Source: a virus
Strand: one strand, 5' to 3'
DNA length: 64,000 bases
IMG/VR virus record: IMGVR_UViG_3300022591_000004
Span: 1 to 64,000 of that record
Part shown: piece by piece, positions 3,066 to 40,881 of the stretch
How positions within the stretch are numbered: the first letter of the stretch is position 1
How the letters are laid out: every line of letters starts with the position of its first letter
Program-made: the position numbers and the translations under genes
The notes under the pieces: generated by a model
Told to the model about the DNA's origin: nothing
The model's input: only the letters and a program-made list of their open reading frames with translations
Databases searched by the model: none

Positions 3066-3617
3066 TTAACGTACATTGTTGACCCCTATCGGCGCCTCTG
3101 GCAACTCGTGCATGGGTCGCAGTTCTGTACGAGGAACATACCACGTGCTCTCGTTGTACTTCCACTCTGCTCTCTTGGCATCTTTTCCATACATCCATCC
3201 AAGGGCGGTATAGGGAGCACCCTTCCATTCAGGGCCGATTCTCTTCGTTTTACGTCCTAGACCACCTGCCATCAGTACATAGATGAGCTCATCGCTATCT
3301 CTGCTGGTGATGCGAAGGCCCCGTACTGCATCGGAAAATACTGGGAACTGTGGTGGAAAGGCATATCTCACCTCTCCAAAGCCTGGAATATCTAACTCTG
3401 TCTTGAAAGTATTCTCAGAGGGCACGAAATCTTTTAGGCCCAGCATTCTAGCGAAGGCAATCTCACTACCCGCGCAAATCATATGTTGGAAGGCTTCCCA
3501 TACATCGCCTTCGGAATAATTGACATTAGCCTCTGGACGCGATAAAAAGCGTAGCTGTCTCTCCCAGCCTACCCGTGCGGCTACTGCTTCCTCTTCTACA
3601 CTCAAAAAATAATCCAC
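3066..3617 (-). CDS. hypothetical phage protein
   Basis: 183-aa ORF, GTG start with GGGG RBS. Confidence 0.7.
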   Translation of the reverse strand: MDYFLSVEEEAVAARVGWERQLRFLSRPEANVNYSEGDVWEAFQHMICAGSEIAFARMLGLKDFVPSENTFKTELDIPGFGEVRYAFPPQFPVFSDAVRGLRITSRDSDELIYVLMAGGLGRKTKRIGPEWKGAPYTALGWMYGKDAKRAEWKYNESTWYVPRTELRPMHELPEAPIGVNNVR

Positions 3618-3745
3618 GTTTCCCCTTCTTCCTGTGCGATAGTTGCATAATCCTTTAACTCTTGCAGCTTCTCACTCTTCTTCTCCGTCACCTGTTCAGC
3701 AACAGAAATCATTGCTCGTAGGGCGGTAATTGATAAAGACTCCAT
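3602..3745 (-). CDS. small hypothetical protein (47 aa), probably leaderless
   Basis: Manually translated MESLSITALRAMISVAEQ...; TACTGT -10 lies 6 nt before the ATG. Confidence 0.55.
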   Translation of the reverse strand: MESLSITALRAMISVAEQVTEKKSEKLQELKDYATIAQEEGETWIIF

Positions 3746-3838
3746 ACCTGCACAGTATCACAGGGCGCCGAATTTCATAAACTCGGCTACTACTTCTGCA
3801 CAATGAGCGATACCTGTTACTGACACCTGGCCTCAATC

Positions 3839-3963
3839 CTGAGAATTGCCTGAATTAACCCTGGGGGGTGTCTGTGTGTGTAGATAGCCTGTGGATAACT
3901 CGTTGTGGACAACACGGTGTGGATATGTCGGTGCTTGACACTTATTCAGCCTAGTATTACTGT
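3839..3963 (+). promoter_or_regulatory. Composite module 0: CTGAG tandem, three DnaA-box-like sites, sigma70 promoter
   Basis: CTGAGA 3839 and CTGAAT 3850; TGTGGATAA 3890, TGTGGACAA 3904, TGTGGATAT 3918; TTGACA 3935-3940, 17 nt, TACTGT 3958-3963. Confidence 0.8.
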
Positions 3964-4007
3964 GCTCTTAGTGGACAACACGGTTCACTAATTAGACGGG
4001 GGACACA

Positions 4008-4265
4008 ATGGCAAAGGTAGACATGCCAGGCGTTCGTAGCTTGCAGAAGCTATGGACAACTATGGTCGAGCAAGGACACGACCCTATCACAGCGGGTCAG
4101 TGGATTAACGGCGCATTTGGCGCAGATTACGAAATCTGCGACTTCTGCAACAAGTACGGCGCGGATGTTTACGAGTACGACATGGGCTCGACCGCAATTT
4201 GCTCGACCTGCGAGGACAACCAACCAACAATCAACGACCTAGTGAAAATGGAGGTGGAGGCGTGA
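4008..4265 (+). CDS. hypothetical early protein with CxxC...CxxC zinc ribbon
   Basis: 85-aa ORF directly after promoter; GGGGG RBS. Confidence 0.7.
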   Translation: MAKVDMPGVRSLQKLWTTMVEQGHDPITAGQWINGAFGADYEICDFCNKYGADVYEYDMGSTAICSTCEDNQPTINDLVKMEVEA

Positions 4266-4438
4266 GCGCCTTCACCTTCCCACGCACCGACAAGACCTAC
4301 AAGGTTACTGTCGAATTCAGCTTCTACGCCGAGGACGAAACCGAGGCGCAGGAAATAATCAAGTACCAGATTCGACGCCCAATCAACACCGACCTAGTTT
4401 CGGTGGACGATGTGACGATGGTCGAGGTTCCCGAGTGA
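4262..4438 (+). CDS. hypothetical early protein
   Basis: GTGA overlap with previous stop; GGAGG RBS. Confidence 0.65.
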   Translation: MSAFTFPRTDKTYKVTVEFSFYAEDETEAQEIIKYQIRRPINTDLVSVDDVTMVEVPE

Positions 4439-4580
4439 AGCTAGCTCTAGTGTTGGGGGCGGTTCTCACCGCCCTCATCACACACCTGTTCTTCACCCCT
4501 CACTATGGAAACTGTCAGCCAACTGACATCGGCAAGACCTGTACACTCACTCATTACACTCTCAAGGAAGGCAAATAATC

Positions 4581-4742
4581 ATGGACCCACGATTTACAAT
4601 TGCAGATACTTATAAGAAATTGCAAAAGGCGGGAATTTCTTATAAGGAGTTCGAGGCAGAACTAAACAACTGCGGCGGACCCGAGAACGCTTTTAGAATC
4701 TGCTGGAAGTACCAAGACATGGCAGAGGATTCCTGCGCATGA
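4581..4742 (+). CDS. hypothetical early protein (53 aa)
   Basis: Manually translated MDPRFTIADTYKKLQ...; AAGGAAGG RBS. Confidence 0.6.
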   Translation: MDPRFTIADTYKKLQKAGISYKEFEAELNNCGGPENAFRICWKYQDMAEDSCA

Positions 4743-4974
4743 TGACCGATTTAGAGTGGATTCTCTTTCAGCTCAATGGAGTTCTGACGGGAAGCCTGAC
4801 CACCGAGCAGAAGCTCGCCAAGCTCACCGAGCTAGTGGCTAATTGCTCAGAGGAGATAGGGCTAAGCGTATGATTATCCTAGTAGCGATAGCAGTAGGAG
4901 TCTTCGGGGGGTGGCTAGGCTCACTAGCCCCCTCAGTAGAGGATGAAGCACAGATTTAGCCCCCGCTAAAACGA

Positions 4975-5010
4975 CAAGCCCGAGAGCCGTTCCTCTCGGG
5001 TTTTGTTGTT
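4975..5010 (+). terminator. Rho-independent terminator
   Basis: CCCGAGAG-CCGTTC-CTCTCGGG followed by TTTTGTTGTTT. Confidence 0.85.
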
Positions 5011-5012
5011 TC

Positions 5013-5227
5013 TTGAGACTTTCCTGAGAATTACCTGAGCGCAAAAGTTTGTGTTGGTGGTTGATATGTGTGGTGTATGTGCCTATGCCAGCCAGCGGCT
5101 TGTCTCGCTACGCTCGCCAACACAAACATTCGGGCAATTCGGACATTTCAGGCTGTGGATAAGTCGCTGTGTATAACTAGCTGTGGAGAGAGAAGGTACT
5201 TGCATTCTCTACTAATGAGAGTAATGT
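5013..5227 (+). promoter_or_regulatory. Composite module A: 11-bp tandem, IR element, 9-bp tandem, DnaA boxes, promoter
   Basis: TTGAG/CTGAG/CTGAG at 5013/5024/5035; IR 5047-5127; CATTCGGGC-AATTCGGAC-ATTTCAGGC 5127-5153; boxes 5154, 5168, 5182; TTGCAT 5200, 16 nt, TAATGT 5222. Confidence 0.85.
5047..5127. repeat. Inverted-repeat-bounded element A (81 bp)
   Basis: GTTTGTGTTGG 5047-5057 ... CCAACACAAAC 5117-5127, a perfect 11-bp IR. Confidence 0.9.
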
Positions 5228-5274
5228 TCCTCTTGTCGCTAAACGGCGAATTTTAATACAGAAAGGCAAGGCTC

Positions 5275-6267
5275 ATGGCTCACGATTTAGAACAGGGTAA
5301 CGGTCAGACCGCATTTGCACTACGCGGAGAACCTGCATGGCACAATCTAGGAACCGTATTCGACAAGGATGCGGACATCACAACGAAGCAAATGTTAGAC
5401 CTCGCACATCTCTCCAATTGGAATGTTCGTCTAGAGCCCGTTTCCTATCCTGAGGGCTACACCACTGTCAAGGACGCTTATTCGGTTGTCCGTAATCACC
5501 CATTCAACGGCAATCCCGATGTTCTGTCGGTCGTAGGCGAGCGCTACAAGGTTGTCCAAAATGAGGAACTCTTCTCATTCGGTGACGGCATGCTAGACGG
5601 TGGCGGGGCATGGGAATCGGCGGGTTCTATCAAGGACGGTCGTGTCGTGTTCGGCTCAATCGTTATTCCGCGCGAATTTATCCTCGACCCTAGCGGAATT
5701 GCCGATAAGACAGTTTCCTATCTGCTTGTCCATACATCACATGACGGCTCGACCGCTCTACAGGCGAATGTAACGCCAATTCGCGTGGTCTGCCAGAATA
5801 CCCTCAATATCGCGCTAGGCTCTAGCAAGCAATCTTTCAAGGTTCGCCACACTCAGACAATCGGCGGACGCATGGAAGAGGCACGTCGTGTACTAGGCTT
5901 AACATTCTCCTACATGGACGATTTCCAGAAGCTGGCGCAAAATCTATTCGAGAGCGAGATTACTAATGCCCAATTCGACAAGCTTGTTGCAGGGCTCTAT
6001 CCAAAGCCTGATGAAGCTAGCAAAATGGCAACCACTAAGTACACCGACAAGCTCGACACCATCCACAATCTCTATAAAGTTGCAGCAACGCAAGACGGAA
6101 TTCGTGGCACGAAATGGGGAGCGCTCAACGCGCTCACAGAACGAGTTGATTATTTCCGTACAAGCCGAACAGGAGACAATAAGTCTCTCATGGCTTCTGC
6201 CAGCGGATTCGACGTCCAGACCAACGCTGAAAAGAACAAGATTCTAAAAGCGGTCATGGCACTGTAA
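5275..6267 (+). CDS. DUF932 / phage-plasmid TIGR03299-like protein
   Basis: EPAWHNLG, YKVVQNEELF, ESAGSIKDGRVVF, SHDGS...TPIRVVCQNTL, HT and GTKWGALNALTE motifs. Confidence 0.9.
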   Translation: MAHDLEQGNGQTAFALRGEPAWHNLGTVFDKDADITTKQMLDLAHLSNWNVRLEPVSYPEGYTTVKDAYSVVRNHPFNGNPDVLSVVGERYKVVQNEELFSFGDGMLDGGGAWESAGSIKDGRVVFGSIVIPREFILDPSGIADKTVSYLLVHTSHDGSTALQANVTPIRVVCQNTLNIALGSSKQSFKVRHTQTIGGRMEEARRVLGLTFSYMDDFQKLAQNLFESEITNAQFDKLVAGLYPKPDEASKMATTKYTDKLDTIHNLYKVAATQDGIRGTKWGALNALTERVDYFRTSRTGDNKSLMASASGFDVQTNAEKNKILKAVMAL

Positions 6268-6276
6268 CAAGATAAG

Positions 6277-6303
6277 TAGAGGGGCGGGGAAACCCGCCTC
6301 TCA
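6277..6303 (+). terminator. GC hairpin, terminator-like
   Basis: AGAGGGGCGGG-AAA-CCCGCCTCTC right after the DUF932 stop; no U-tract. Confidence 0.6.
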
Positions 6304-6518
6304 CCTAATTCTCAGACACGCCCGAGCGCGTTGCAGAAAAGTTTGTGTTGGGTGGCTGGGTGGGGTGGTGGTTGTTTCCTTTAATACTTTCGTAGCTCGC
6401 TTACTCGCTTCGACACAAACATTCGCAAAACGGACATTTCGGGCTGTGGATAACCTGGTGTGGATAAAGATATACACAGGGCGAGAGTTATTGACTTCTA
6501 CGATAACAAGAGTATTGT
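6299..6518 (+). promoter_or_regulatory. Composite module B
   Basis: TCTCAC 6299 and TCTCAG 6310; IR 6341-6420; AAAACGGAC-ATTTCGGGC 6427-6444; TGTGGATAA 6445 and 6459, ATATACACA 6470; TTGACT 6491, 16 nt, TATTGT 6513. Confidence 0.85.
6341..6420. repeat. Inverted-repeat-bounded element B (80 bp)
   Basis: GTTTGTGTTGG ... TCGACACAAAC. Confidence 0.85.
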
Positions 6519-6556
6519 CCTCTCTGTAAGGCAAATAACTACTACAGAAGGAGAGA

Positions 6557-6724
6557 ATGATGATTCAGTCACCATTCACGTCACAGGAAGTCCGTAAGCT
6601 GTTCGTCCTCGTCTGCGCTTCACCAGATATTGAGATGAAGGAAGCCATCGAGCTTCTCAACAAGTTGGATTCTTTGCATATCGCCACCAAGGGCGTCGAA
6701 TATTATGAAAGTCAGGGGGTGTGA
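6557..6724 (+). CDS. hypothetical early protein (55 aa)
   Basis: Manually translated MMIQSPFTSQEVRKLF...; AAGGAG RBS directly after promoter B. Confidence 0.65.
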   Translation: MMIQSPFTSQEVRKLFVLVCASPDIEMKEAIELLNKLDSLHIATKGVEYYESQGV

Positions 6725-7007
6725 GGTGAAAACACTGGCGGATTTTAAGCGCGCACTTACTGTAGGCACTGAAGTAGAACTACTTAGCTTAGCAAAGAAC
6801 GTCAAGGGTGGGCGCTTGCAGGTTGGTATGGTGCGCCGAGTCACCAAGGCAGATACCACTGGCGTGTACTTGCAAACCGAAGGACTCGAAGGTCGAGGTT
6901 CATTCTTAGGTTGGGATAAGGCTAAAGATTGGGTGTTTGACGGCGATAGGGCTATTAATATCGTCTGGGGCTATTCATACCGAGTATTGAATAAAGAGGG
7001 CAGCTAA
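6705..7007 (+). CDS. hypothetical early protein (probable start GTG 6726)
   Basis: ORF followed by a hairpin. Confidence 0.7.
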   Translation: MKVRGCEVKTLADFKRALTVGTEVELLSLAKNVKGGRLQVGMVRRVTKADTTGVYLQTEGLEGRGSFLGWDKAKDWVFDGDRAINIVWGYSYRVLNKEGS

Positions 7008-7019
7008 TACTTAGCTAAG

Positions 7020-7042
7020 TTGAGGGGCGAAAGCCCCTCAGC
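7020..7042 (+). terminator. GAAA-tetraloop hairpin, terminator-like
   Basis: TGAGGGGC-GAAA-GCCCCTCA. Confidence 0.65.
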
Positions 7043-7239
7043 CAATTCTCAGGAAAATGTTTGTGTTGACCGAGCGAGCAGCGAGGGCAATCAGTGGCTG
7101 GCATGGGCATATACCTGCATATATCAACCGACACAAACAATTCGGACATTTCAGACAAATTGGGCTGTGGATAACTCGTTGGGGATAAAGTTATACACAA
7201 GGGGAGAGTATTTGACATATCTATAGAAAGCGATAGTCT
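7036..7239 (+). promoter_or_regulatory. Composite module C
   Basis: CCTCAG 7036 and TCTCAG 7047; IR 7059-7138; AATTCGGAC-ATTTCAGAC-AAATTGGGC 7139-7165; TGTGGATAA 7166, TGGGGATAA 7180, TTATACACA 7191; TTGACA 7212, 16 nt, TAGTCT 7234. Confidence 0.85.
7059..7138. repeat. Inverted-repeat-bounded element C (80 bp); interior is an inverted homolog of element A
   Basis: GTTTGTGTTGA ... CCGACACAAAC; interior CGAGCGAGCAGCGAG...TGGCTGGCATGGGCATATAC...ATATCAACC aligns to the reverse complement of the A interior. Confidence 0.88.
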
Positions 7240-7286
7240 TCTCTTTGTAAGGCAAACAACCACTCTAGAAAGAGAGTAAAGGCAAA

Positions 7287-7535
7287 ATGGCAAAACTTCT
7301 ACCACGCTTTGAGGTAAAGGTTACCGCAGAGTATCACTACGAGTCCGAGGACTTTGATACCGAAGGCAACCTTACCCGCGAAACTGTCGAGAATGACGCA
7401 AGTATCGCTTTCTACGACAATGTTAATAATGCCGAAATCTACTCAACCGAGATTACCAAGTCTTGGTTCGAGTGCGAGGATTGCGGCGAAGATGATGTCG
7501 AAGAAGACCACGAGTGCGAAAACGAGGCTGAGTAA
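7287..7535 (+). CDS. highly acidic hypothetical early protein
   Basis: 82 aa, D/E-rich, C-terminal CEDC...HEC. Confidence 0.7.
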   Translation: MAKLLPRFEVKVTAEYHYESEDFDTEGNLTRETVENDASIAFYDNVNNAEIYSTEITKSWFECEDCGEDDVEEDHECENEAE

Positions 7536-7768
7536 TGACACGCAAGGACTACCAGCTTATTGCTAAGACTATTTCAGACTTCCGCTACGAGGGTACGGAG
7601 TTCCGTGACCCTGTAATGATTGCCCTGATTGACCGTCTTGGGGCGCGTATTTGTGAGGCGTTGGAAAACGAAAATCCGCGCTTTAACGCCGATAAATTTC
7701 TAGAGGCTATGGAATACGGAAAACGCCCTACCACCGATGAAATCGTCATGCGAGCGTGGGGGTCGTAA
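7535..7768 (+). CDS. conserved phage hypothetical protein (MTRKDY...NPRFxxxKF)
   Basis: MTRKDYQLIA and ENPRFNADKFLEA motif. Confidence 0.75.
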   Translation: MTRKDYQLIAKTISDFRYEGTEFRDPVMIALIDRLGARICEALENENPRFNADKFLEAMEYGKRPTTDEIVMRAWGS

Positions 7769-7817
7769 TGAAAACCACCGAAGACTACTACAAGGCTTAT
7801 TACAAGGGAGAAATAGC

Positions 7818-8018
7818 GTGAAAAAAGGCATTAAAGAAGTCCTTCAGATTGCTCTAGAAGAAGCTGACGACTATAGCTACGTCCTAACACAGGAACAAGC
7901 CGCAGAACATCGGGGCGCAAAATACGCTCTATACGAGGTTTATCAGTATCTCTTTGATGAGTCATACCAGACCGAGCGTGACAAGCGCCTAGAGGCTAAA
8001 CAGAGTTCTCCCGCGTAA
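7818..8018 (+). CDS. hypothetical early protein
   Basis: GTG start with GGGAG RBS; followed by terminator. Confidence 0.6.
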   Translation: MKKGIKEVLQIALEEADDYSYVLTQEQAAEHRGAKYALYEVYQYLFDESYQTERDKRLEAKQSSPA

Positions 8019-8050
8019 GTTATTTGCCTTTCTGACGCGGTTGAGATGGG

Positions 8051-8090
8051 ACATAGAGCGGAGACTACCCTTCGCTCTTTGTTCATTTTA
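8051..8090 (+). terminator. Rho-independent terminator
   Basis: AGAGCGGAG-ACTACC-CTTCGCTCT followed by TTGTTCATTTT. Confidence 0.65.
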
Positions 8091-8118
8091 GTAGAAAATT
8101 CGCGCCTAAGCGCCAAAA

Positions 8119-8218
8119 GTTTGTGTTGGTCACTCCTTGATATGGTCATATATGTGCATAATGTGCTGTGCTGGCTATCACACGTGACAAAACCCACCCA
8201 CCCGCTACCAACACAAAC
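8119..8218. repeat. Inverted-repeat-bounded element D (100 bp)
   Basis: GTTTGTGTTGG 8119-8129 ... CCAACACAAAC 8208-8218, perfect IR. Confidence 0.9.
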
Positions 8219-8237
8219 ATTGCCAGCCTTGTCAAAT

Positions 8238-8280
8238 CTGAGAGTTAGCTGAGAGAGTTATCCACAGAGAGTTATCCACA
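8238..8280. promoter_or_regulatory. CTGAGA tandem and two perfect DnaA boxes in reverse orientation
   Basis: CTGAGA 8238/8249; TTATCCACA 8258 and 8272. Confidence 0.85.
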
Positions 8281-8335
8281 GGCTGCGAGCGCCCAAGTGG
8301 GCAAATATCGACAAATTGACATGTAAATAAAGAGA

Positions 8336-8351
8336 TGTTTCACGTGAAACG
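8336..8351. promoter_or_regulatory. parS-like centromere site
   Basis: TGTTTCACGTGAAACG; 15/16 match to the bacterial parS consensus TGTTTCACGTGAAACA, with a perfect 14-bp palindrome. Confidence 0.8.
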
Positions 8352-8441
8352 CTGATTCGGCTACTATTTAGCTGAGTAGAGAGAGTAAGCGGTGGTAAGA
8401 CCAGATTGCTGGGGGTATCCCGAGTGTTCCTATCGCATAGC

Positions 8442-8642
8442 CTGAGAAGAAGCTGAGTGAGAGCTGAGAGAGACTATCCCTATCCCCTTCCCTATCCCTA
8501 TACCTATATAAAGAAAGGCTCAGAATCGCTTAGGCGCGAAATTTTTATAGGGGGTTGTGGATAACTGCTTGTGGATAAACACCTGTGGATAACTATTTAT
8601 TTATCGTGGTGTGTTGCATTATCCCTTTTTATCCCCTAGTGT
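8442..8642 (+). promoter_or_regulatory. Composite module E: CTGAG x3, three perfect DnaA boxes, promoter
   Basis: CTGAG 8442/8453/8464; TGTGGATAA 8556/8570/8584; TTGCAT 8614, 17 nt, TAGTGT 8637. Confidence 0.85.
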
Positions 8643-8729
8643 CCTGTCTATCAGGTTATGAGTGATAACAAGTAAGCGATTAGGTAGCCCTAGTCCACCT
8701 GATACACCTACCACAACGAAAGGCAACAC

Positions 8730-9023
8730 ATGAACCTCACACAAAAGCAAAATGTCGCTAAAAGCCTGAAAAACGCTAAGGGTATCGCGTGGGATACCTG
8801 CCATAAGATTTATATTCTTATGGACGATAATCAAATGGAACTCATGCGCGGTTATGGCTATGACCCATTGGTTAGCTCAGTAGATACTACCCCTGACGAG
8901 ATGTTGGCTCTTATCGAGGATTGGTTCGACAATTCGTGCGACCTACGTTTCATTGACTCTGTAACTACTGACACCGAGAATCCTAACGCGGGATTTCTTA
9001 CTGTTGTAGGGCAGGATTTCTAA
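8730..9023 (+). CDS. hypothetical early protein
   Basis: 97 aa; GAAAGG RBS; WDTCHKIY and SCDLRFI motifs. Confidence 0.75.
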   Translation: MNLTQKQNVAKSLKNAKGIAWDTCHKIYILMDDNQMELMRGYGYDPLVSSVDTTPDEMLALIEDWFDNSCDLRFIDSVTTDTENPNAGFLTVVGQDF

Positions 9024-9355
9024 TGAGCTATATAAAGAGCCTATTAGAGGATATTAACGCCGAGTGCGAGAACGAAAATATCCCTGTCAAGGCGTTTATT
9101 GCTTATCTAGATAATGACCATATCCCGCTAGGGGAGTGGCAAGACCATATTCCTAACTTCCATGAGGCTTACGTAGGTAAGTACGATTCGGTCGCGGATT
9201 TTGCTTCTGATATGGCTGAGCGCTTGGGCGTATTTACTGAGGCTAGTAGTTATGACTCTTTCTTGGTTCGATACTTTGATTTCGAGGCTTGGGGGCGCGA
9301 TTTATTACAGGGTGATTACTGGGAGATTGACGGTTACTACTTTGGGAGTTACTAA
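9023..9355 (+). CDS. ardA: ArdA-like antirestriction protein (C-terminal domains only)
   Basis: Acidic; FHEAYVGKYDS..DFA...LVRYFDFEAWGRDL...YF matches the ArdA C-terminal signature. Confidence 0.75.
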   Translation: MSYIKSLLEDINAECENENIPVKAFIAYLDNDHIPLGEWQDHIPNFHEAYVGKYDSVADFASDMAERLGVFTEASSYDSFLVRYFDFEAWGRDLLQGDYWEIDGYYFGSY

Positions 9356-12983: not shown

Positions 12984-15017
12984 CTATTGGTTATCTTTAA
13001 TTAATCTTACTTCACACGCGTCTGTTGTGCAGTAAGCCTCGCCCACCGCGTCAGCCGCCATACCAGCATAGACACCAGCAAAATCAATAGGGAAGAGAGT
13101 CATAGTCGCCTCTTCATAATCTTCTTCACTAATCTGAGTGTATGGCATCTGTGGATAAGTAGTGTTTCCTGAAGGCAAGAATGAGACGGTCTTGAGTTGT
13201 CCTTCGTGCATATGAAGAACCCTCTTAATCTCATTACTCTCTGTCTCAGGGTCAAAAGAGACCGTTACTGATACAGAATTATCTGACCACTCGTACTGTG
13301 CGGCGGCGGCTAGATGAATCTTCTCGTAAATAGAGACTTCCTTCTCAGAACGGAGAGCGTCCGACTTGACAGGGAAGAACACTACTGAGGTTGTCTTAGG
13401 AGACTCACTTGCTGGTTCGACACGATAGTTAGCCATCTTAAAGAGAGGCAACATAGGGTCAGAGTTAGCAAAGCGAATTGCACGAAGGAAGAACTTACCG
13501 CCAACAGACCAGTGCACACCTGGGCTCTCACCTGCGAGGATAGAGACTGTTCCTGATGGCTTGACAGTTGTCATCTTGATTGACTCACGAATACCGAGCC
13601 ACTCTGAGTAACCCTTATCGTATTCCTTGACAACAACGTAGCCCTCATCGAGCCACTTGCGAAGAACAGGGAGACCCTTATTATCAGAGAAGTTAGCAAC
13701 ACCTGAGACAGAGGTTCCGATACGACGGTTACGTTGCATGATGGCGTTGGTTTCTTCCCAGTGGGTAGGCAAGAGAGTCACGGTCTTGGCATAGAGATAA
13801 GCAAACTTGAGAGTGCGCTTAAAATCATCTAAGTTATCGTGACGATTAAGATAGGTCTCAACTAGAGTGCAACACTCATACGATTCAAGAGATTGTTCAG
13901 CGCATGGGTTGTATCCCATAGCACGCCAGTCCTTGTTGTTGATACCATCCTTGAGACGACCATACTTTCGTGTGACATCCATCCAGATAACACCTGGCTC
14001 TCCATTGTGGGCGATACCATCCACAATAGCGGAGAGGTCTTGACCTACCGATACCTCAACAGAGTTGTTAGACATCCACGCCCAGCCTGGGTTCTTAGGG
14101 TCATAAGAGTTGCGCTCAGGGAACTTCTCGGCGTTCTTAAGATTGAGGAAGTCTTGGTCGTCAATGCGACCCATCAACAACTCAGCTGAACGACGAACGT
14201 TTCCTGATACAACACAAACGCCAATCATATTTCCGATGTCAGCAATATCCACGCGAGTCAGCTTCTGACCTGCTCGGCCATCGAACATCTTAGTAATGTG
14301 GTTGTGAAGTTTCTCTAGTGGCTCGTGTCCCGCGGCTGTTCCTCCAAAGGTTTTAATCGGAGTACCTGCTGGGCGGATTTCTGAGTAGTCAAAGATAGGC
14401 TTCTTCGTATCTGGCTTAAGGTAGGAATTGAGGAGGGCGGTAAGTGATTCCACCCAGCCTTCTCTGGTGTCAGGAATGACATATGTATCTCCTTGGGTAG
14501 GGGCAAAAATTGCGAAGTCTTTGTCCGCACCTTTGTCGTCGAATCCAACACCTACGCCGAGCATCGACGCCTCCATGAGGAAAGCAAAAGGCTTGGCTGG
14601 GTTGAGCTTGGTCATAGAATCTGTGGAAACAAAGGCACAGTTTTGGAGCGCGGCTGAGTTGCGTTGCTCATTAACAAGCGGAGTACCCATGACCCATAGT
14701 CCGCGTCCTGGTGGTGTCCACTTGAGGTTCCATAGTCGGTCGAAAGCCTCTTTAGCGGAGGCAGCTGCCTTGGAGTCTGACCATGGAAGTCGGTTCAACT
14801 TGGCGTGGTCTTTCTGAAGCGAATACATACCGTTGATGACTCGCTCGCAGACATCTGTCCACGTCTCTTTAGTGCCATCTTCTTTGAGTCGGGAATAGGT
14901 ACGAAGGAAAGTAATCTCTCCTACCGAGTTGCCTGCCGCGTCTTGGTATCCCCACGGAACCTTCTTGTCCCGATATCCTGTCAGGAAATCTTCTGTCAGA
15001 CGGAAAGACAAACCCAT
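12984..15017 (-). CDS. nrdJ: class II (B12-dependent) ribonucleoside-triphosphate reductase
   Basis: PPGRGLW, ALQNC, GNVRRSA, NPCAE, TVKPSGT and C-terminal YCTTDAC motifs. Confidence 0.95.
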   Translation of the reverse strand: MGLSFRLTEDFLTGYRDKKVPWGYQDAAGNSVGEITFLRTYSRLKEDGTKETWTDVCERVINGMYSLQKDHAKLNRLPWSDSKAAASAKEAFDRLWNLKWTPPGRGLWVMGTPLVNEQRNSAALQNCAFVSTDSMTKLNPAKPFAFLMEASMLGVGVGFDDKGADKDFAIFAPTQGDTYVIPDTREGWVESLTALLNSYLKPDTKKPIFDYSEIRPAGTPIKTFGGTAAGHEPLEKLHNHITKMFDGRAGQKLTRVDIADIGNMIGVCVVSGNVRRSAELLMGRIDDQDFLNLKNAEKFPERNSYDPKNPGWAWMSNNSVEVSVGQDLSAIVDGIAHNGEPGVIWMDVTRKYGRLKDGINNKDWRAMGYNPCAEQSLESYECCTLVETYLNRHDNLDDFKRTLKFAYLYAKTVTLLPTHWEETNAIMQRNRRIGTSVSGVANFSDNKGLPVLRKWLDEGYVVVKEYDKGYSEWLGIRESIKMTTVKPSGTVSILAGESPGVHWSVGGKFFLRAIRFANSDPMLPLFKMANYRVEPASESPKTTSVVFFPVKSDALRSEKEVSIYEKIHLAAAAQYEWSDNSVSVTVSFDPETESNEIKRVLHMHEGQLKTVSFLPSGNTTYPQMPYTQISEEDYEEATMTLFPIDFAGVYAGMAADAVGEAYCTTDACEVRLIKDNQ

Positions 15018-15160: not shown

Positions 15161-16633
15161 TCAGCCTTCGCTGATATCTTTAATAATTTTGGTGGTCTGC
15201 TCTTCATTTAAGCCGCCGTTTGGCAGCTCTCGAAGGGCTTGCGCCTTGTCTCCAAAGATGTTAGAAAGCACACCAGCAGACCCATTTTTTGCCTCTACAG
15301 TCATGCGAATAAACGAGGCTGAGTCGTCCAAATCCTTGGTAGTTTTGATGAGCTTAAACAATCTGTCAATCTCTTGGGAAACGTTTGGGTCTGCGTATCC
15401 ACCGTTCATTTCTTCAGTAAAACGCATAAAAGCGACTCTTTGACCCTGCATTTCAATCATTGCGTTAATCAAACTCTTAAGTTGGTCTTTAGTCTTTACC
15501 TCAATAGGAAGGTTGAAAGCGCACATTGTTTGCGGCTTAAAAGCAGGGCAGTTGGCGGCTACAAAACAGGTATCGCACTGGCGAATTGTGCTACTTTGCG
15601 AGCGCACAACAGGAACGTCTTTGATGATGTCTTGACCATCTTCATCGGTCTCTACAACGGTCTTAAAGTCGTATCCGAAGACGGGTAAATTGCCCATTTC
15701 TTCTGGATTTCGGCTCTCAACTTTCCGCATGCCAATACCCTTGTTATCGCTTACGCTGGGGGTAGTTTCCCCACTATCCTCCACATCGCTCCACTCGCTG
15801 TTATGCGATAGGAAGCCGTCTTCTGCGCCACTCATGTTCATCCTCGCTTCGTATTGTTCGTATGACCATACAGCCAGACGACAGACTTCTTGTGGGTCAT
15901 CTTCCATAATCAGGTCGTAGCTCAAGCCCGCCTTTTCATACACCTTGGCGTATCGTACCCGAGCTTGCTCCTTCATACTCTTGTTGTATCTAACAAGCTT
16001 AGTACCGTCCCAGACAATCGTTTCACCGTGGAGCATGGGAGCCAGCCATGACAGGGTACTGGCGGTCTCTACCTTGACCTGACGCAGGTTGTAGGGCTTA
16101 GCGGTGTTTATGGCGTGGAAGCGGGTTCCTCGGGCTGTATAGCCCCGTGTAAGGGCGGCTAGCTGGGTCTCGTGCTCAATGTCGTCACCCATGATTCCTA
16201 TGTCTAGGTAGTGCTCGACCATCTTCTTAAAACCGTCTATGCCTGTCTGGGGCTGCCAAACTGGTTGGAACTTGGAGGGCGGAACTTCATTCCAGCAGGT
16301 CTTCCTCTGCTCTGCAATAAACTCAGGAGTGAGCATGGGGTGGACAACCTCATTAAAGCTCACAATCCTGTCTATGTTATTGGCGATGAACTCCTCGTAC
16401 AGGGCGCAAAATTCTTCTAGCTCATCCTGTGTGAGCTTTTCGACCTTGGGGATACCTGCATGGGCGTAGATATGGGTATCGGGCGTAAAGTAATTCTCTA
16501 AAAGGTATGCCTTAGTTTTGGGTAACCCACGACGATATAGGCGCCAGAAACTAACCCCAACATGGTTGGCGGTGGTGGACTCTAGAAGGGTACGGTTGGA
16601 TGGAACTTCCGCACCTAAGTAAATGATTCGCAT
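15161..16633 (-). CDS. hypothetical protein; possible TGT-like TIM-barrel N-terminus and Cys4 C-terminal domain
   Basis: FHAIN...VETASTLSWL resembles the H(G/A)xG...(D)SxSW motif of phage TGT-like proteins; CDTC...CPAF...CAF. ORF certain, function tentative. Confidence 0.5.
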   Translation of the reverse strand: MRIIYLGAEVPSNRTLLESTTANHVGVSFWRLYRRGLPKTKAYLLENYFTPDTHIYAHAGIPKVEKLTQDELEEFCALYEEFIANNIDRIVSFNEVVHPMLTPEFIAEQRKTCWNEVPPSKFQPVWQPQTGIDGFKKMVEHYLDIGIMGDDIEHETQLAALTRGYTARGTRFHAINTAKPYNLRQVKVETASTLSWLAPMLHGETIVWDGTKLVRYNKSMKEQARVRYAKVYEKAGLSYDLIMEDDPQEVCRLAVWSYEQYEARMNMSGAEDGFLSHNSEWSDVEDSGETTPSVSDNKGIGMRKVESRNPEEMGNLPVFGYDFKTVVETDEDGQDIIKDVPVVRSQSSTIRQCDTCFVAANCPAFKPQTMCAFNLPIEVKTKDQLKSLINAMIEMQGQRVAFMRFTEEMNGGYADPNVSQEIDRLFKLIKTTKDLDDSASFIRMTVEAKNGSAGVLSNIFGDKAQALRELPNGGLNEEQTTKIIKDISEG

Positions 16634-39327: not shown

Positions 39328-40022
39328 CGTTGAGACCTTCTTAAGTCTAACTCTCCGTCTACGGGAACATAAAGAAACGCTTCTCGTATAAAGCTTCCTG
39401 TGGCGTCTCCGTACGTTTCTGCCCAGTTGTCTCGCTTGATATTGCTAGTAACAATCGTAGGCAATCCATTGTTGAATCTGGTGCGCAACACATGATGAAG
39501 CATATTTTTTTGCCATCCAGACAGACTAGAGTGCTCTTTTCCTATGTCATCAATAATCAAAATTCTAATGTTGTAAGCATCATCTCGGCATTCACCAAGC
39601 ATTCCGTCATACAGGACTTTATCGCTCTCATACGGCTCGTCGTCCATAAGGCGCCCTTTTAGGTCTAAGACATCGTTAAAGGTGGCAAAGTAACATGGGC
39701 GAACAATGACCTTGCCCTCTTGAGGTACAAAAGCCTCTAGTGGAAACGTAGCCATAACCTCTTGGATAACCGCCAAAGCAAGGGTAGTTTTTCCTCTACC
39801 TGGCTCTCCGTAAAAAAGGATTCCTCGGCCGCATTTAGCCCCTCCAGCCTTCAGGATGTATTCACCTGACAAAGCAAGCTTAACCCAGCCTCTAACGGCC
39901 TCTAAAGCCTTTTCTGGGGCATCTGTACAGTCACCTAAAGTCCACCCTAAACGAGCTGTGGGTATAGAGGCGGACTGCACCCATGAACGACGGCGAATTT
40001 TTAGGTCTTCTAGCTTAAACAC
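39324..40022 (-). CDS. DnaC/IstB-like AAA+ helicase loader
   Basis: GEPGRGKT, IIDDIGKE, R.NNGLPTIVTSN. Confidence 0.88.
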   Translation of the reverse strand: MFKLEDLKIRRRSWVQSASIPTARLGWTLGDCTDAPEKALEAVRGWVKLALSGEYILKAGGAKCGRGILFYGEPGRGKTTLALAVIQEVMATFPLEAFVPQEGKVIVRPCYFATFNDVLDLKGRLMDDEPYESDKVLYDGMLGECRDDAYNIRILIIDDIGKEHSSLSGWQKNMLHHVLRTRFNNGLPTIVTSNIKRDNWAETYGDATGSFIREAFLYVPVDGELDLRRSQR

Positions 40023-40881
40023 CAAAATCCTCCCCAAACTCTCGTTTCCACTCTTCTTCTGCCTCAACCATAGCGGTTGCCAAATCATCTGACGAATTGA
40101 GACGGGCTTTGGCTTGAAGAGCTAGCTCAGGAAACCGTTTGATAAAGGTTTTCCACAACATGTCACCGTTAGTCTCTTTATTGACTTTAAGGGCGCCAAA
40201 AAACAACCGCATCATTTCTTGTTCTACTTCTCCGTCAGTGTCGTATGTCTGACGAGCTTTGGACAGGGCTATAAAAAATCGGCTTCCAGCAAGTTTCCAC
40301 GGAGGAATCCCCCAAATGGCACTCATCTGAGAAACAAACTCATTAGCGGACTGGTTAACGTTCCAGCCTTTAGGAGAAGCGGTTTCTCTGTCAACGACGT
40401 CTTTAGCGTGTTTTTCTGACTTCTGCTCTTGATAGGTAGCTTTGCGCTCAGCCATCGCTTTAAGGCGTTCGGCTTGGCGCTCATCAGCATCGGAGCTTGA
40501 GGTGCTCTTGAAAAACTCGTACCCCACCTTTTCCTCCAATCGCCCGATTGATGTTTTATTAATATCTATAACTGAATTAGCTAATACTTGTATTAAGCTA
40601 TTCTGCTCACTGTGTAGTATCTGAGGACGGCTTTTCAGGCCCCAGGAAGCCGCCTCCATAAATCCCTTTTCAGTTACATAACTTACAGTCTTGACCTCAT
40701 TGTTGACCCGTTCTTTGCGGGTAACAATCAGTCCAGCCTCTCGCAGCTCTTTCAGTGCGGTTCGTATTGCGTCTCGTCCTTCAGCTACCTCTTCGGCAAG
40801 GCGTGCAGCACTGATAGACATATCAGCGTTGATGAAGTACGCCAAAGCACCACGTGCCCGAAGAGATAGTTTTTTATCCAC
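40015..40881 (-). CDS. phage replication initiator-like protein (N-terminal wHTH)
   Basis: LSLRARGALAY...GRDAIRTALKELREAGLI; directly upstream of the DnaC-like loader. Confidence 0.7.
   Translation of the reverse strand: MDKKLSLRARGALAYFINADMSISAARLAEEVAEGRDAIRTALKELREAGLIVTRKERVNNEVKTVSYVTEKGFMEAASWGLKSRPQILHSEQNSLIQVLANSVIDINKTSIGRLEEKVGYEFFKSTSSSDADERQAERLKAMAERKATYQEQKSEKHAKDVVDRETASPKGWNVNQSANEFVSQMSAIWGIPPWKLAGSRFFIALSKARQTYDTDGEVEQEMMRLFFGALKVNKETNGDMLWKTFIKRFPELALQAKARLNSSDDLATAMVEAEEEWKREFGEDFGV

Follow-up and report, generated by a model that had tools for sequence, protein, structure and literature searches.

Tandem arrays of DnaA-type 9-mers at putative early promoters of a freshwater phage

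Introduction

Why would a phage line up perfect copies of a DnaA-type 9-mer in front of genes that look early, and which protein reads them? The question is raised by positions 3890-8592 of the virus record IMGVR_UViG_3300022591_000004, a complete genome of 95,668 bp with 98-bp terminal repeats, whose first 64 kb form the stretch analyzed here (the window). Both TTTTCCACA and TTATCCACA have been documented as DnaA boxes (PMC5835720). An initial annotation of the window had proposed that these 4.7 kb contain DnaA boxes phased 14 bp apart directly upstream of -35 elements, on which host DnaA would assemble cooperatively to control early genes, or by which it would be sequestered. Below we argue that the 9-mers are very probably DnaA-type sites and, with moderate confidence, that host DnaA bound at these arrays controls the early promoters of the phage.

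Results

The 9-mers are concentrated in six intergenic arrays

The exact 9-mer TTATCCACA occurs 12 times in the window, compared with a shuffle mean of 0.44 and a shuffle maximum of 2, and TTATNCACA sites occur 16 times compared with 2.5 expected. When the whole genome is considered, 10 of the 14 exact sites fall inside 3890-8592 (Poisson P for ten or more, ~3e-22), where the boxes are held by six intergenic arrays, designated A to F. The ten perfect sites and every other coordinate given in the initial annotation proved correct, and the count against expectation bears out the clustering that it described. Two TTATACACA sites (5168 and 7191) and one TTATGCACA site (8153) agree, like the ten perfect copies, with the consensus TTATNCACA or TT(A/T)TNCACA. 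Three further sites have a single mismatch, at 3904 (TTGTCCACA), 3918 (ATATCCACA) and 7180 (TTATCCCCA), and two differ from TTATCCACA at two positions, at 5182 (CTCTCCACA) and 6470 (ATATACACA). The site at 8153 and a near-box, TTGTCCACT, at 3970-3978 had not been listed before; including these two, the total with degenerate copies comes to 17-19 sites.

The spacing of the sites is strict. All nine pairs of neighbors in the same orientation are exactly 14 bp apart, as had been claimed (3890/3904/3918, 5154/5168/5182, 6445/6459, 7166/7180, 8258/8272 and 8556/8570/8584), and no two of the nine 5-bp spacers have the same sequence. An inverted third box, located 11 bp past the second, was likewise found in the arrays at 6445 and 7166. 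Isolated perfect boxes outside this block are present at 13150 and 59731, as had been noted, and also at 66110 and 78645 (four compared with 0.6 expected, P=0.004); the first two fall within long open reading frames (ORFs) and the last two lie beyond the window.

Most arrays stand in a fixed register with promoter-like hexamers

Array A (3890-3926, minus-strand reading) consists of TTATCCACA, TTGTCCACA and ATATCCACA at 14-bp pitch and is followed by putative promoter A (3935-3963, plus strand; TTGACA, 17 nt, TACTGT), which precedes the first rightward gene, with its ATG at 4008. Array B (5154-5190, minus strand) combines TTATCCACA, TTATACACA and CTCTCCACA at the same pitch, and putative promoter B (5200-5227, plus strand; TTGCAT, 16 nt, TAATGT) lies between it and the DUF932 gene (5275-6267). 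In array C (6445-6478, minus strand), two perfect boxes 14 bp apart are accompanied by the inverted ATATACACA (6470-6478, plus strand) 11 bp on; putative promoter C follows (6491-6518, plus strand; TTGACT, 16 nt, TATTGT). Array D (7166-7199, minus strand) is built in the same manner from TTATCCACA and TTATCCCCA at 14 bp plus an inverted TTATACACA (7191-7199, plus strand) 11 bp on, ahead of putative promoter D (7212-7239, plus strand; TTGACA, 16 nt, TAGTCT). The two remaining arrays are array E (8258-8280, plus strand), whose two perfect boxes at 14-bp pitch have the opposite orientation and occupy the left part of a gene-free stretch, and array F (8556-8592, minus strand), with three perfect boxes at 14-bp pitch. 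Putative promoter F (8614-8642, plus strand; TTGCAT, 17 nt, TAGTGT) precedes an operon that starts at 8730 and includes ArdA.

Aligned by eye, the distance from the start of the first box to the start of the -35-like hexamer is 45, 46, 46 and 46 bp for arrays A to D and 58 bp for array F. Elements resembling a -10 (TAnTGT or TAGTCT) lie 16-17 nt past the TTGACA-like hexamer at arrays A to D, and two or three boxes span roughly -81 to -45 at these four putative promoters.

The genes downstream form a block of their own: up to 3745 the genes point leftward, between 4008 and about 12.9 kb they point rightward, and beyond that leftward again. The rightward block, which looks early, contains small ORFs, most of them without a Pfam match, as well as the DUF932 protein, the ArdA antirestriction protein (9023-9355) and a subtilase. 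No sigma factor was found when the phage was searched for one, and therefore it probably relies on the host RNA polymerase; a search for a T7-type polymerase was uninterpretable, its control having matched nowhere. WhiB proteins are essentially restricted to Actinobacteria and their phages. Two WhiB genes are present in the phage, and in a control search of 14 named genomes only Corynebacterium passed the cut-off; these genes indicate an actinobacterial host, an assignment that reaches the phylum only.

The variation and distribution of the sites point to DnaA

Which protein would bind the 9-mers? One line of evidence comes from the way in which they vary. A set of 84 distinct degenerate sites beside perfect boxes was compared with a background of similar words far from boxes. 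In the partner sites, positions 1, 3 and 5 account for 71% of the mismatches and positions 4, 8 and 9 for 7%; the background values are 29% and 36%, respectively (chi-square P=4e-19). From position 1 to position 9, the 84 partner sites have 25, 10, 30, 2, 30, 9, 8, 5 and 1 mismatches. At position 3 the replacement is mainly T (20) or G (6), and at position 5 any base is found, which again gives TT(A/T)TNCACA; the variation is thus found at the tolerated positions 3 and 5, and the CACA half is kept.

A second line of evidence is conservation. The DUF932 protein was used to recover 139 relatives from IMG/VR, 80 loci of which were kept. The density of exact boxes in these 80 loci is 0.25 per kb, which exceeds the random rate about 33-fold. 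No other 9-mer is shared by as many of the 50 distinct 200-bp regions upstream of DUF932 as TGTGGATAA, which is present in 26 of them and outranks the ribosome-binding site; the reversed word is present in none. In the complete relatives G001 and G002, the boxes are restricted to an early block of ~6 kb, with about one per promoter module, and six modules of G001 have an inverted box pair whose end lies 4 bp ahead of TTGnnn-N18-TAnAnT. When the present phage (G000) is compared with its closest relative, a difference is found at 1 of 81 positions within boxes and at 48 of 533 intergenic positions outside them (P=0.013); the sole change in the boxes falls at the degenerate position 5. The arrangement differs across lineages: the pitch of direct repeats is 11, 12, 14 or 21-22 bp and that of inverted pairs 11 or 23 bp, and both orientations occur. 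Such freedom of orientation and pitch is easier to reconcile with a protein that binds an asymmetric site as a monomer than with a dimeric repressor.

It is improbable, in our judgment, that the 9-mers are operators or iterons of a protein other than DnaA, be it an early phage protein, the product of the gene at 40015-40881 or another regulator of the host. Such a protein could have escaped recognition, given how few of the small early ORFs match Pfam, and the 40015-40881 product has a weak DnaD/O-like winged-helix match at its N-terminus. Moreover, about half of the relatives have no box and carry a TTAYAACGATTNGATAAC-type motif at the same place instead, as would be seen with swapped regulators. 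However, the sites do not follow any candidate gene. For this comparison, the genomes G001, G002, G003, G409, G411 and G413 were fetched whole and all G000 ORFs were compared. G000, G001 and G002, which are box-rich, and G409, which has 2 boxes in 88.5 kb, belong to one family (major capsid protein identities of 97, 90 and 83%), whereas G003, G411 and G413 (34-39% GC) have little in common with G000 beyond DUF932, ribonucleotide reductase (RNR) and WhiB; box-bearing G003 has almost nothing else of G000. In these seven genomes, no G000 ORF is present in all box-bearing genomes and in no box-less one, and the early small ORFs of G000 are common to G001 only. The initial annotation had put forward the product of the initiator-like gene at 40015-40881 as an alternative binder. 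This gene is missing from the box-rich G002 and is found in the box-less G409, which disfavors the product as the binder; iterons of the phage's own initiator were rejected on the same grounds and because the gene lies 31 kb away from the boxes. The DnaA-like degeneracy and the free orientation and pitch also speak against a non-DnaA protein, the latter against one of the dimeric helix-turn-helix type. Nor does a sigma-28 (WhiG/FliA) -10 element, GCCGATAA, account for the sites: its GATAA half, which corresponds to box positions 1-5, is the variable half, the boxes are both tandem and inverted, and there is no TAAA at the required distance. A CRP site has N8 spacing. By inspection, the inverted pairs of G001 read TGTG-N12-CACA, not N8, and the present phage has direct repeats, so that a CRP-like palindrome was rejected as well.

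We therefore consider the DnaA-type identity very probable, because the sites include the exact consensus, degenerate in a DnaA-like manner, are conserved across phages without a common DNA-binding protein, and use the word found in the oriC of actinobacteria; on these counts the initial reading of the 9-mers as DnaA boxes is supported. Searches for DnaA domains III and IV in the phage found none, and a weak AAA+ match that was considered as a phage DnaA was rejected, as it is a DnaC-like loader.

Other motifs accompany or replace the boxes in particular lineages. The TTAYAACGATTNGATAAC-type motif is located upstream of DUF932 in the box-less loci L012-L018, L022-L023 and L033-L038, while L024 has a box plus CGTTAT/TGTTAT repeats. 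Partner motifs specific to a lineage are CTGAGA in L029 and GTGAACA/ATGAACA in L041 and L057.

The 14-bp pitch is real but is not that of origins

The fixed 14-bp spacing had been taken as a sign of cooperative DnaA oligomers, and a comparison with the spacing at actinobacterial oriC had been suggested. Tandem perfect boxes are present in 57 of the 401 actinobacterial genomes. A recurrent group of genomes of about 3 Mb carries arrays of many perfect TGTGGATAA copies; in five members of the group, no more than about 1 kb separates the arrays from dnaA, which places them at oriC. The same 9-mer word is thus used at the sampled actinobacterial origins, the phage's own host being known to phylum only. 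The dominant pitch in these oriC arrays is 12 bp; 22 bp is also common and 14 bp is rare. Accordingly, 14 bp was rejected as the oriC pitch of the host.

The spacing also proved specific to a lineage. Among the DUF932 relatives, the 14-bp pitch is found only in the present phage and its nearest relative, the others having 11, 12 or 21-23 bp in either orientation. Among the 120 IMG/VR contigs listed with tandem perfect boxes (gap of 0-30 nt), the pitch peaks at 11-13, 20-22 and 32-34 bp and none of 108 box pairs is at 14-16 bp; the peaks in this listed sample are whole helical turns. A pitch of 14 bp turns neighboring boxes by about 120 degrees. The 14-bp pitch therefore gives no sign of the same-face cooperative arrays known from origins, and that part of the initial interpretation is not upheld. 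It is nevertheless a real pitch, strictly kept here and recurrent elsewhere, but it is a minority, off-phase arrangement.

Outside this family, perfect pairs at 14 bp were found in more than 120 bacterial stretches from many phyla, and none of the five actinobacterial 14-bp sites that were checked is at dnaA. Such pairs are also present in 84 IMG/VR contigs; 3 of the 80 loci fetched have any protein in common with the present phage. One of these five, a conserved intergenic site of Streptomyces, has the form CCCC-TGTGGATAA-N5-TGTGGATAA; it follows lpqB and precedes a ComF-like gene and hpf, on a contig other than that of dnaA (loci L100, L112, L125, L136, L175, L181, L190, L201, L207 and L208). 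Similar 14-bp pairs are present in Bifidobacterium, Nocardioides, Pseudarthrobacter and an Acidimicrobiales metagenome-assembled genome.

Proposed promoter control by host DnaA and possible titration of host DnaA

We propose that the TGTGGATAA/TTATCCACA sites would bind the DnaA of the actinobacterial host and that, being placed just 5' of the -35 elements of early promoters read by the host RNA polymerase, DnaA bound at roughly -81 to -45 would gate early transcription. The start of infection would then depend on the amount or the nucleotide state of the host initiator. An action on transcription, rather than as a mere sink or an origin, is suggested by the fixed register to the -35 (45-46 bp here, and the 4-bp gap in G001). 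Activation by DnaA would be more probable than repression, because the boxes leave the core promoter free and activators usually sit upstream of it.

It should be noted that several observations weigh against promoter control. The promoters were assigned by eye, and a strict generic scanner, which in this region performs no better than on shuffles, passed only 6491-6518 (promoter C). The initial claim that the arrays lie directly upstream of -35 elements holds, by eye, for five of them and fails for array E, which is flipped and where no convincing -10 or promoter was seen by eye; array F is 12 bp farther from its -35 than the other arrays. Just 3' of promoter A, the near-box TTGTCCACT (3970-3978, minus strand) lies within a 20-nt repeat of the array sequence (repeat family D12, 3899-3918 and 3965-3984, 90% identical) and hints at repression there. 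Adjacent DnaA molecules at 14 bp would not share one face of the DNA. Finally, because about half of the relatives carry another motif at this place, the boxes are dispensable for this class of promoter.

Could the arrays instead serve mainly to soak up host DnaA, so that oriC no longer fires after entry and multiplication of the phage DNA and the position of the arrays at promoters is secondary? The numbers would allow it. The phage genome has 14 perfect and at least 7 degenerate boxes, whereas only 12-40 perfect ones were counted per actinobacterial genome (whole genomes of 1.4-3.2 Mb); in the two 3-Mb genomes, oriC accounts for about half of them. With 14 boxes per phage, a few phage copies would outnumber all sites of a host with such a complement. 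In E. coli, it is well established that chromosomal boxes control initiation by titrating DnaA (PMC5835720, PMC13674477), and a phage with its own helicase, loader, primase and polymerase would not suffer from the loss of DnaA. Yet a sink has no need of a fixed register to the -35, which is nonetheless seen at 45-46 bp in four arrays and as the 4-bp gap in G001. Furthermore, the relatives have one box per promoter, which makes a poor sink, and the boxes are limited to the promoters of one gene block, being neither spread over the genome nor massed in one place. We regard a DnaA sink as an unlikely principal role. Control of the promoters is the most likely function of the arrays, and titration is a plausible second effect, since the box count of the phage matches that of a host chromosome (12-40).

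It seems very improbable that the boxes are passengers of a duplicated mobile promoter cassette with little function of their own. Modules B to E share other repeats, namely GTTTGTGTTGG inverted repeats and CTGAGA repeats, and look paralogous, but the spacers between the boxes have diverged while the boxes and their pitch have been kept, and the boxes recur in unrelated phage groups with different cassettes. Each of arrays B to E is closely preceded by 60-90 variable bases between inverted repeats AAAGTTTGTGTTGG ... CCAACACAAAC (5044-5133, 6338-6425, 7056-7143 and 8116-8221); the CCAACACAAAC arm precedes the box in many relatives, and CAACACAAA is present in 14 of 50 upstream regions. CTGAGA direct repeats with 11-bp spacing are located upstream of several modules and flank array E (3837-3853, 5011-5038, 8235-8257 and 8439-8472).

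A different layout was observed in an unrelated group of IMG/VR phages (L217, L221, L222, L234, L235, L237, L238, L241, L250, L252 and others), which have four or five DnaA boxes around one promoter. In this group, boxes at 11- and 14-bp pitch are followed by a TTGAC that overlaps an inverted box, and then by a box that overlaps a TGTGCATAAT -10; in 15 contigs the TTGAC lies 26 nt past the first box. The promoter of the unrelated group looks DnaA-repressed.

The gene-free stretch at 8020-8729 as a possible origin

The stretch 8020-8729 (~700 bp) is free of genes and contains five perfect boxes in both orientations, those of arrays E and F. Between the two arrays, at 8336-8351, lies a parS-like palindrome that matches TGTTNCACGTGAAACA at 15 of 16 positions and has a perfect GTTTCACGTGAAAC core. 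Sites of this kind are also present in the early region of a few relatives (G002:C1:85709, L029:5793 and L030:4316), ~0.006 being expected in 818 kb. The best-conserved non-coding piece of the stretch is 8354-8405, which is 86.5% identical to G001 over 52 nt; its GGCTACT and CCAGATT motifs are also seen in relatives that are more distant, and Rfam gave no match to it. This piece could be a small RNA or an origin core.

The stretch as a whole could be an origin or a loading site for origin proteins of the host. Specifically, host DnaA might open the DNA here for the DnaC-like loader and the DnaB-like helicase, both of which are encoded by the phage together with a primase, and the boxes at the promoters would be offshoots of this DnaA-dependent phage origin. 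Consistent with such an origin, a short AT-rich run of 13 nt, seen by eye, follows array F, G002 has boxes without a detectable homolog of the initiator-like protein, and in relatives a non-coding piece that is partly conserved lies between two terminal box modules that have been kept. On the other hand, inspection by eye, not a systematic scan, revealed no clear unwinding element and no DnaA-trio-like repeat, and the GC skew tracks the direction of transcription and gives no origin signal. An origin would also account for two arrays, but not for the four at promoters A to D with their fixed register. With regard to features of the oriC type, the phage has no dnaA, its pitch is 14 instead of 12 bp, and the AT-rich run is one seen by eye only. 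Taking these points together, we hold a DnaA-dependent origin to be a distinctly unlikely explanation of the boxes.

The features of the region may also be read jointly, although we put this forward tentatively and think it rather doubtful: with its tandem DnaA boxes and parS site, the early region might imitate origin-proximal DNA of the host. The injected genome would then load host DnaA, and perhaps ParB, within minutes, and the replication or growth state of the host would set how strongly the early operons fire. The multiplying phage would strip DnaA from oriC and arrest initiation in the host, while the off-phase 14-bp pitch would bind DnaA tightly without allowing the same-face oligomer that opens DNA.

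Other features of the phage and its surroundings

The ORFs of the window also encode a family A DNA polymerase, a class II ribonucleotide reductase, an SNF2 helicase, a baseplate J protein and an NlpC/P60 domain protein. A queuine tRNA-ribosyltransferase-like protein is encoded at 15161-16633, and genes for tRNA-Leu(TAG) and tRNA-Met are located near the left end (70-222). By DNA polymerase, the closest cultured phages are the Streptomyces phages Alone3 and BRock (~39% identity), in which boxes are dispersed and form no cluster, and which therefore offer no annotated precedent. A megablast search of 3600-9000 against GenBank phages gave no match, and an Rfam scan of the same interval found nothing. 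The sequencing runs that share at least a fifth of the sampled words are viral and freshwater metagenomes, and no RNA run is among those listed.

Discussion

Two properties of DnaA are already known, namely that it is a transcription factor and that it is a titratable initiator, and phage lambda is known to make modest use of it. As far as our literature searches reach, no phage with a whole early program wired to DnaA is on record, and the searches yielded no account of DnaA-box arrays at early phage promoters or in actinophages. If DnaA binds the arrays, many uncultivated actinobacterial lake phages would sense or disable the replication initiator at the first step of infection. If this view is correct, it would provide a simple and testable link between the growth state of the host and the outcome of infection in slow-growing freshwater bacteria. 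With six arrays, 10 perfect boxes and a strict pitch, the present phage is the member of its family best suited to bench work, and its close relatives with and without boxes are natural controls.

Bacterial promoters at which DnaA acts as a transcription factor through promoter-proximal boxes include the dnaA and nrdAB promoters of E. coli and those of the DnaA regulon of B. subtilis. Like these, the phage has small clusters of consensus 9-mers within about 100 bp of a putative promoter of the housekeeping type, and the expected read-out is the level or the nucleotide state of DnaA. The phage differs in that it is of the lytic type and has an array of its own for each early operon, with strict 14-bp tandems at about -81 to -45.

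The accessory features of datA include an IHF site and DnaA-ATP hydrolysis. Together with other chromosomal box clusters, datA titrates DnaA (PMC5835720, PMC13674477). The phage arrays resemble such clusters in having several boxes, presumably of high affinity, close together outside oriC, and in a box number comparable to the whole complement of the host (14 compared with 12-40 perfect boxes), but, unlike datA, they are split over promoters in a fixed register.

For phage lambda, footprints of the DnaA boxes near pO have been obtained, and the origin is activated by transcription that DnaA stimulates (PMC3985674 and its references). The two systems are alike in that host DnaA on phage DNA modulates transcription by the host RNA polymerase, which for the present phage is a prediction from its sequence. 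The lambda boxes are few and weak, lie downstream of promoters and are tied to origin activation, whereas the present actinophage has perfect boxes in tandem arrays upstream of five putative promoters.

With the oriC of actinobacteria, the phage shares the same perfect 9-mer in tandem and a parS-like site nearby, as at chromosomal origins. The oriC arrays have mainly 12- and 22-bp pitch and lie beside dnaA, whereas the phage has a pitch of 14 bp and neither dnaA nor dnaN. What sets the phage apart from all of these systems is the combination of tandem 14-bp arrays at putative early promoters with an accompanying parS-like site.

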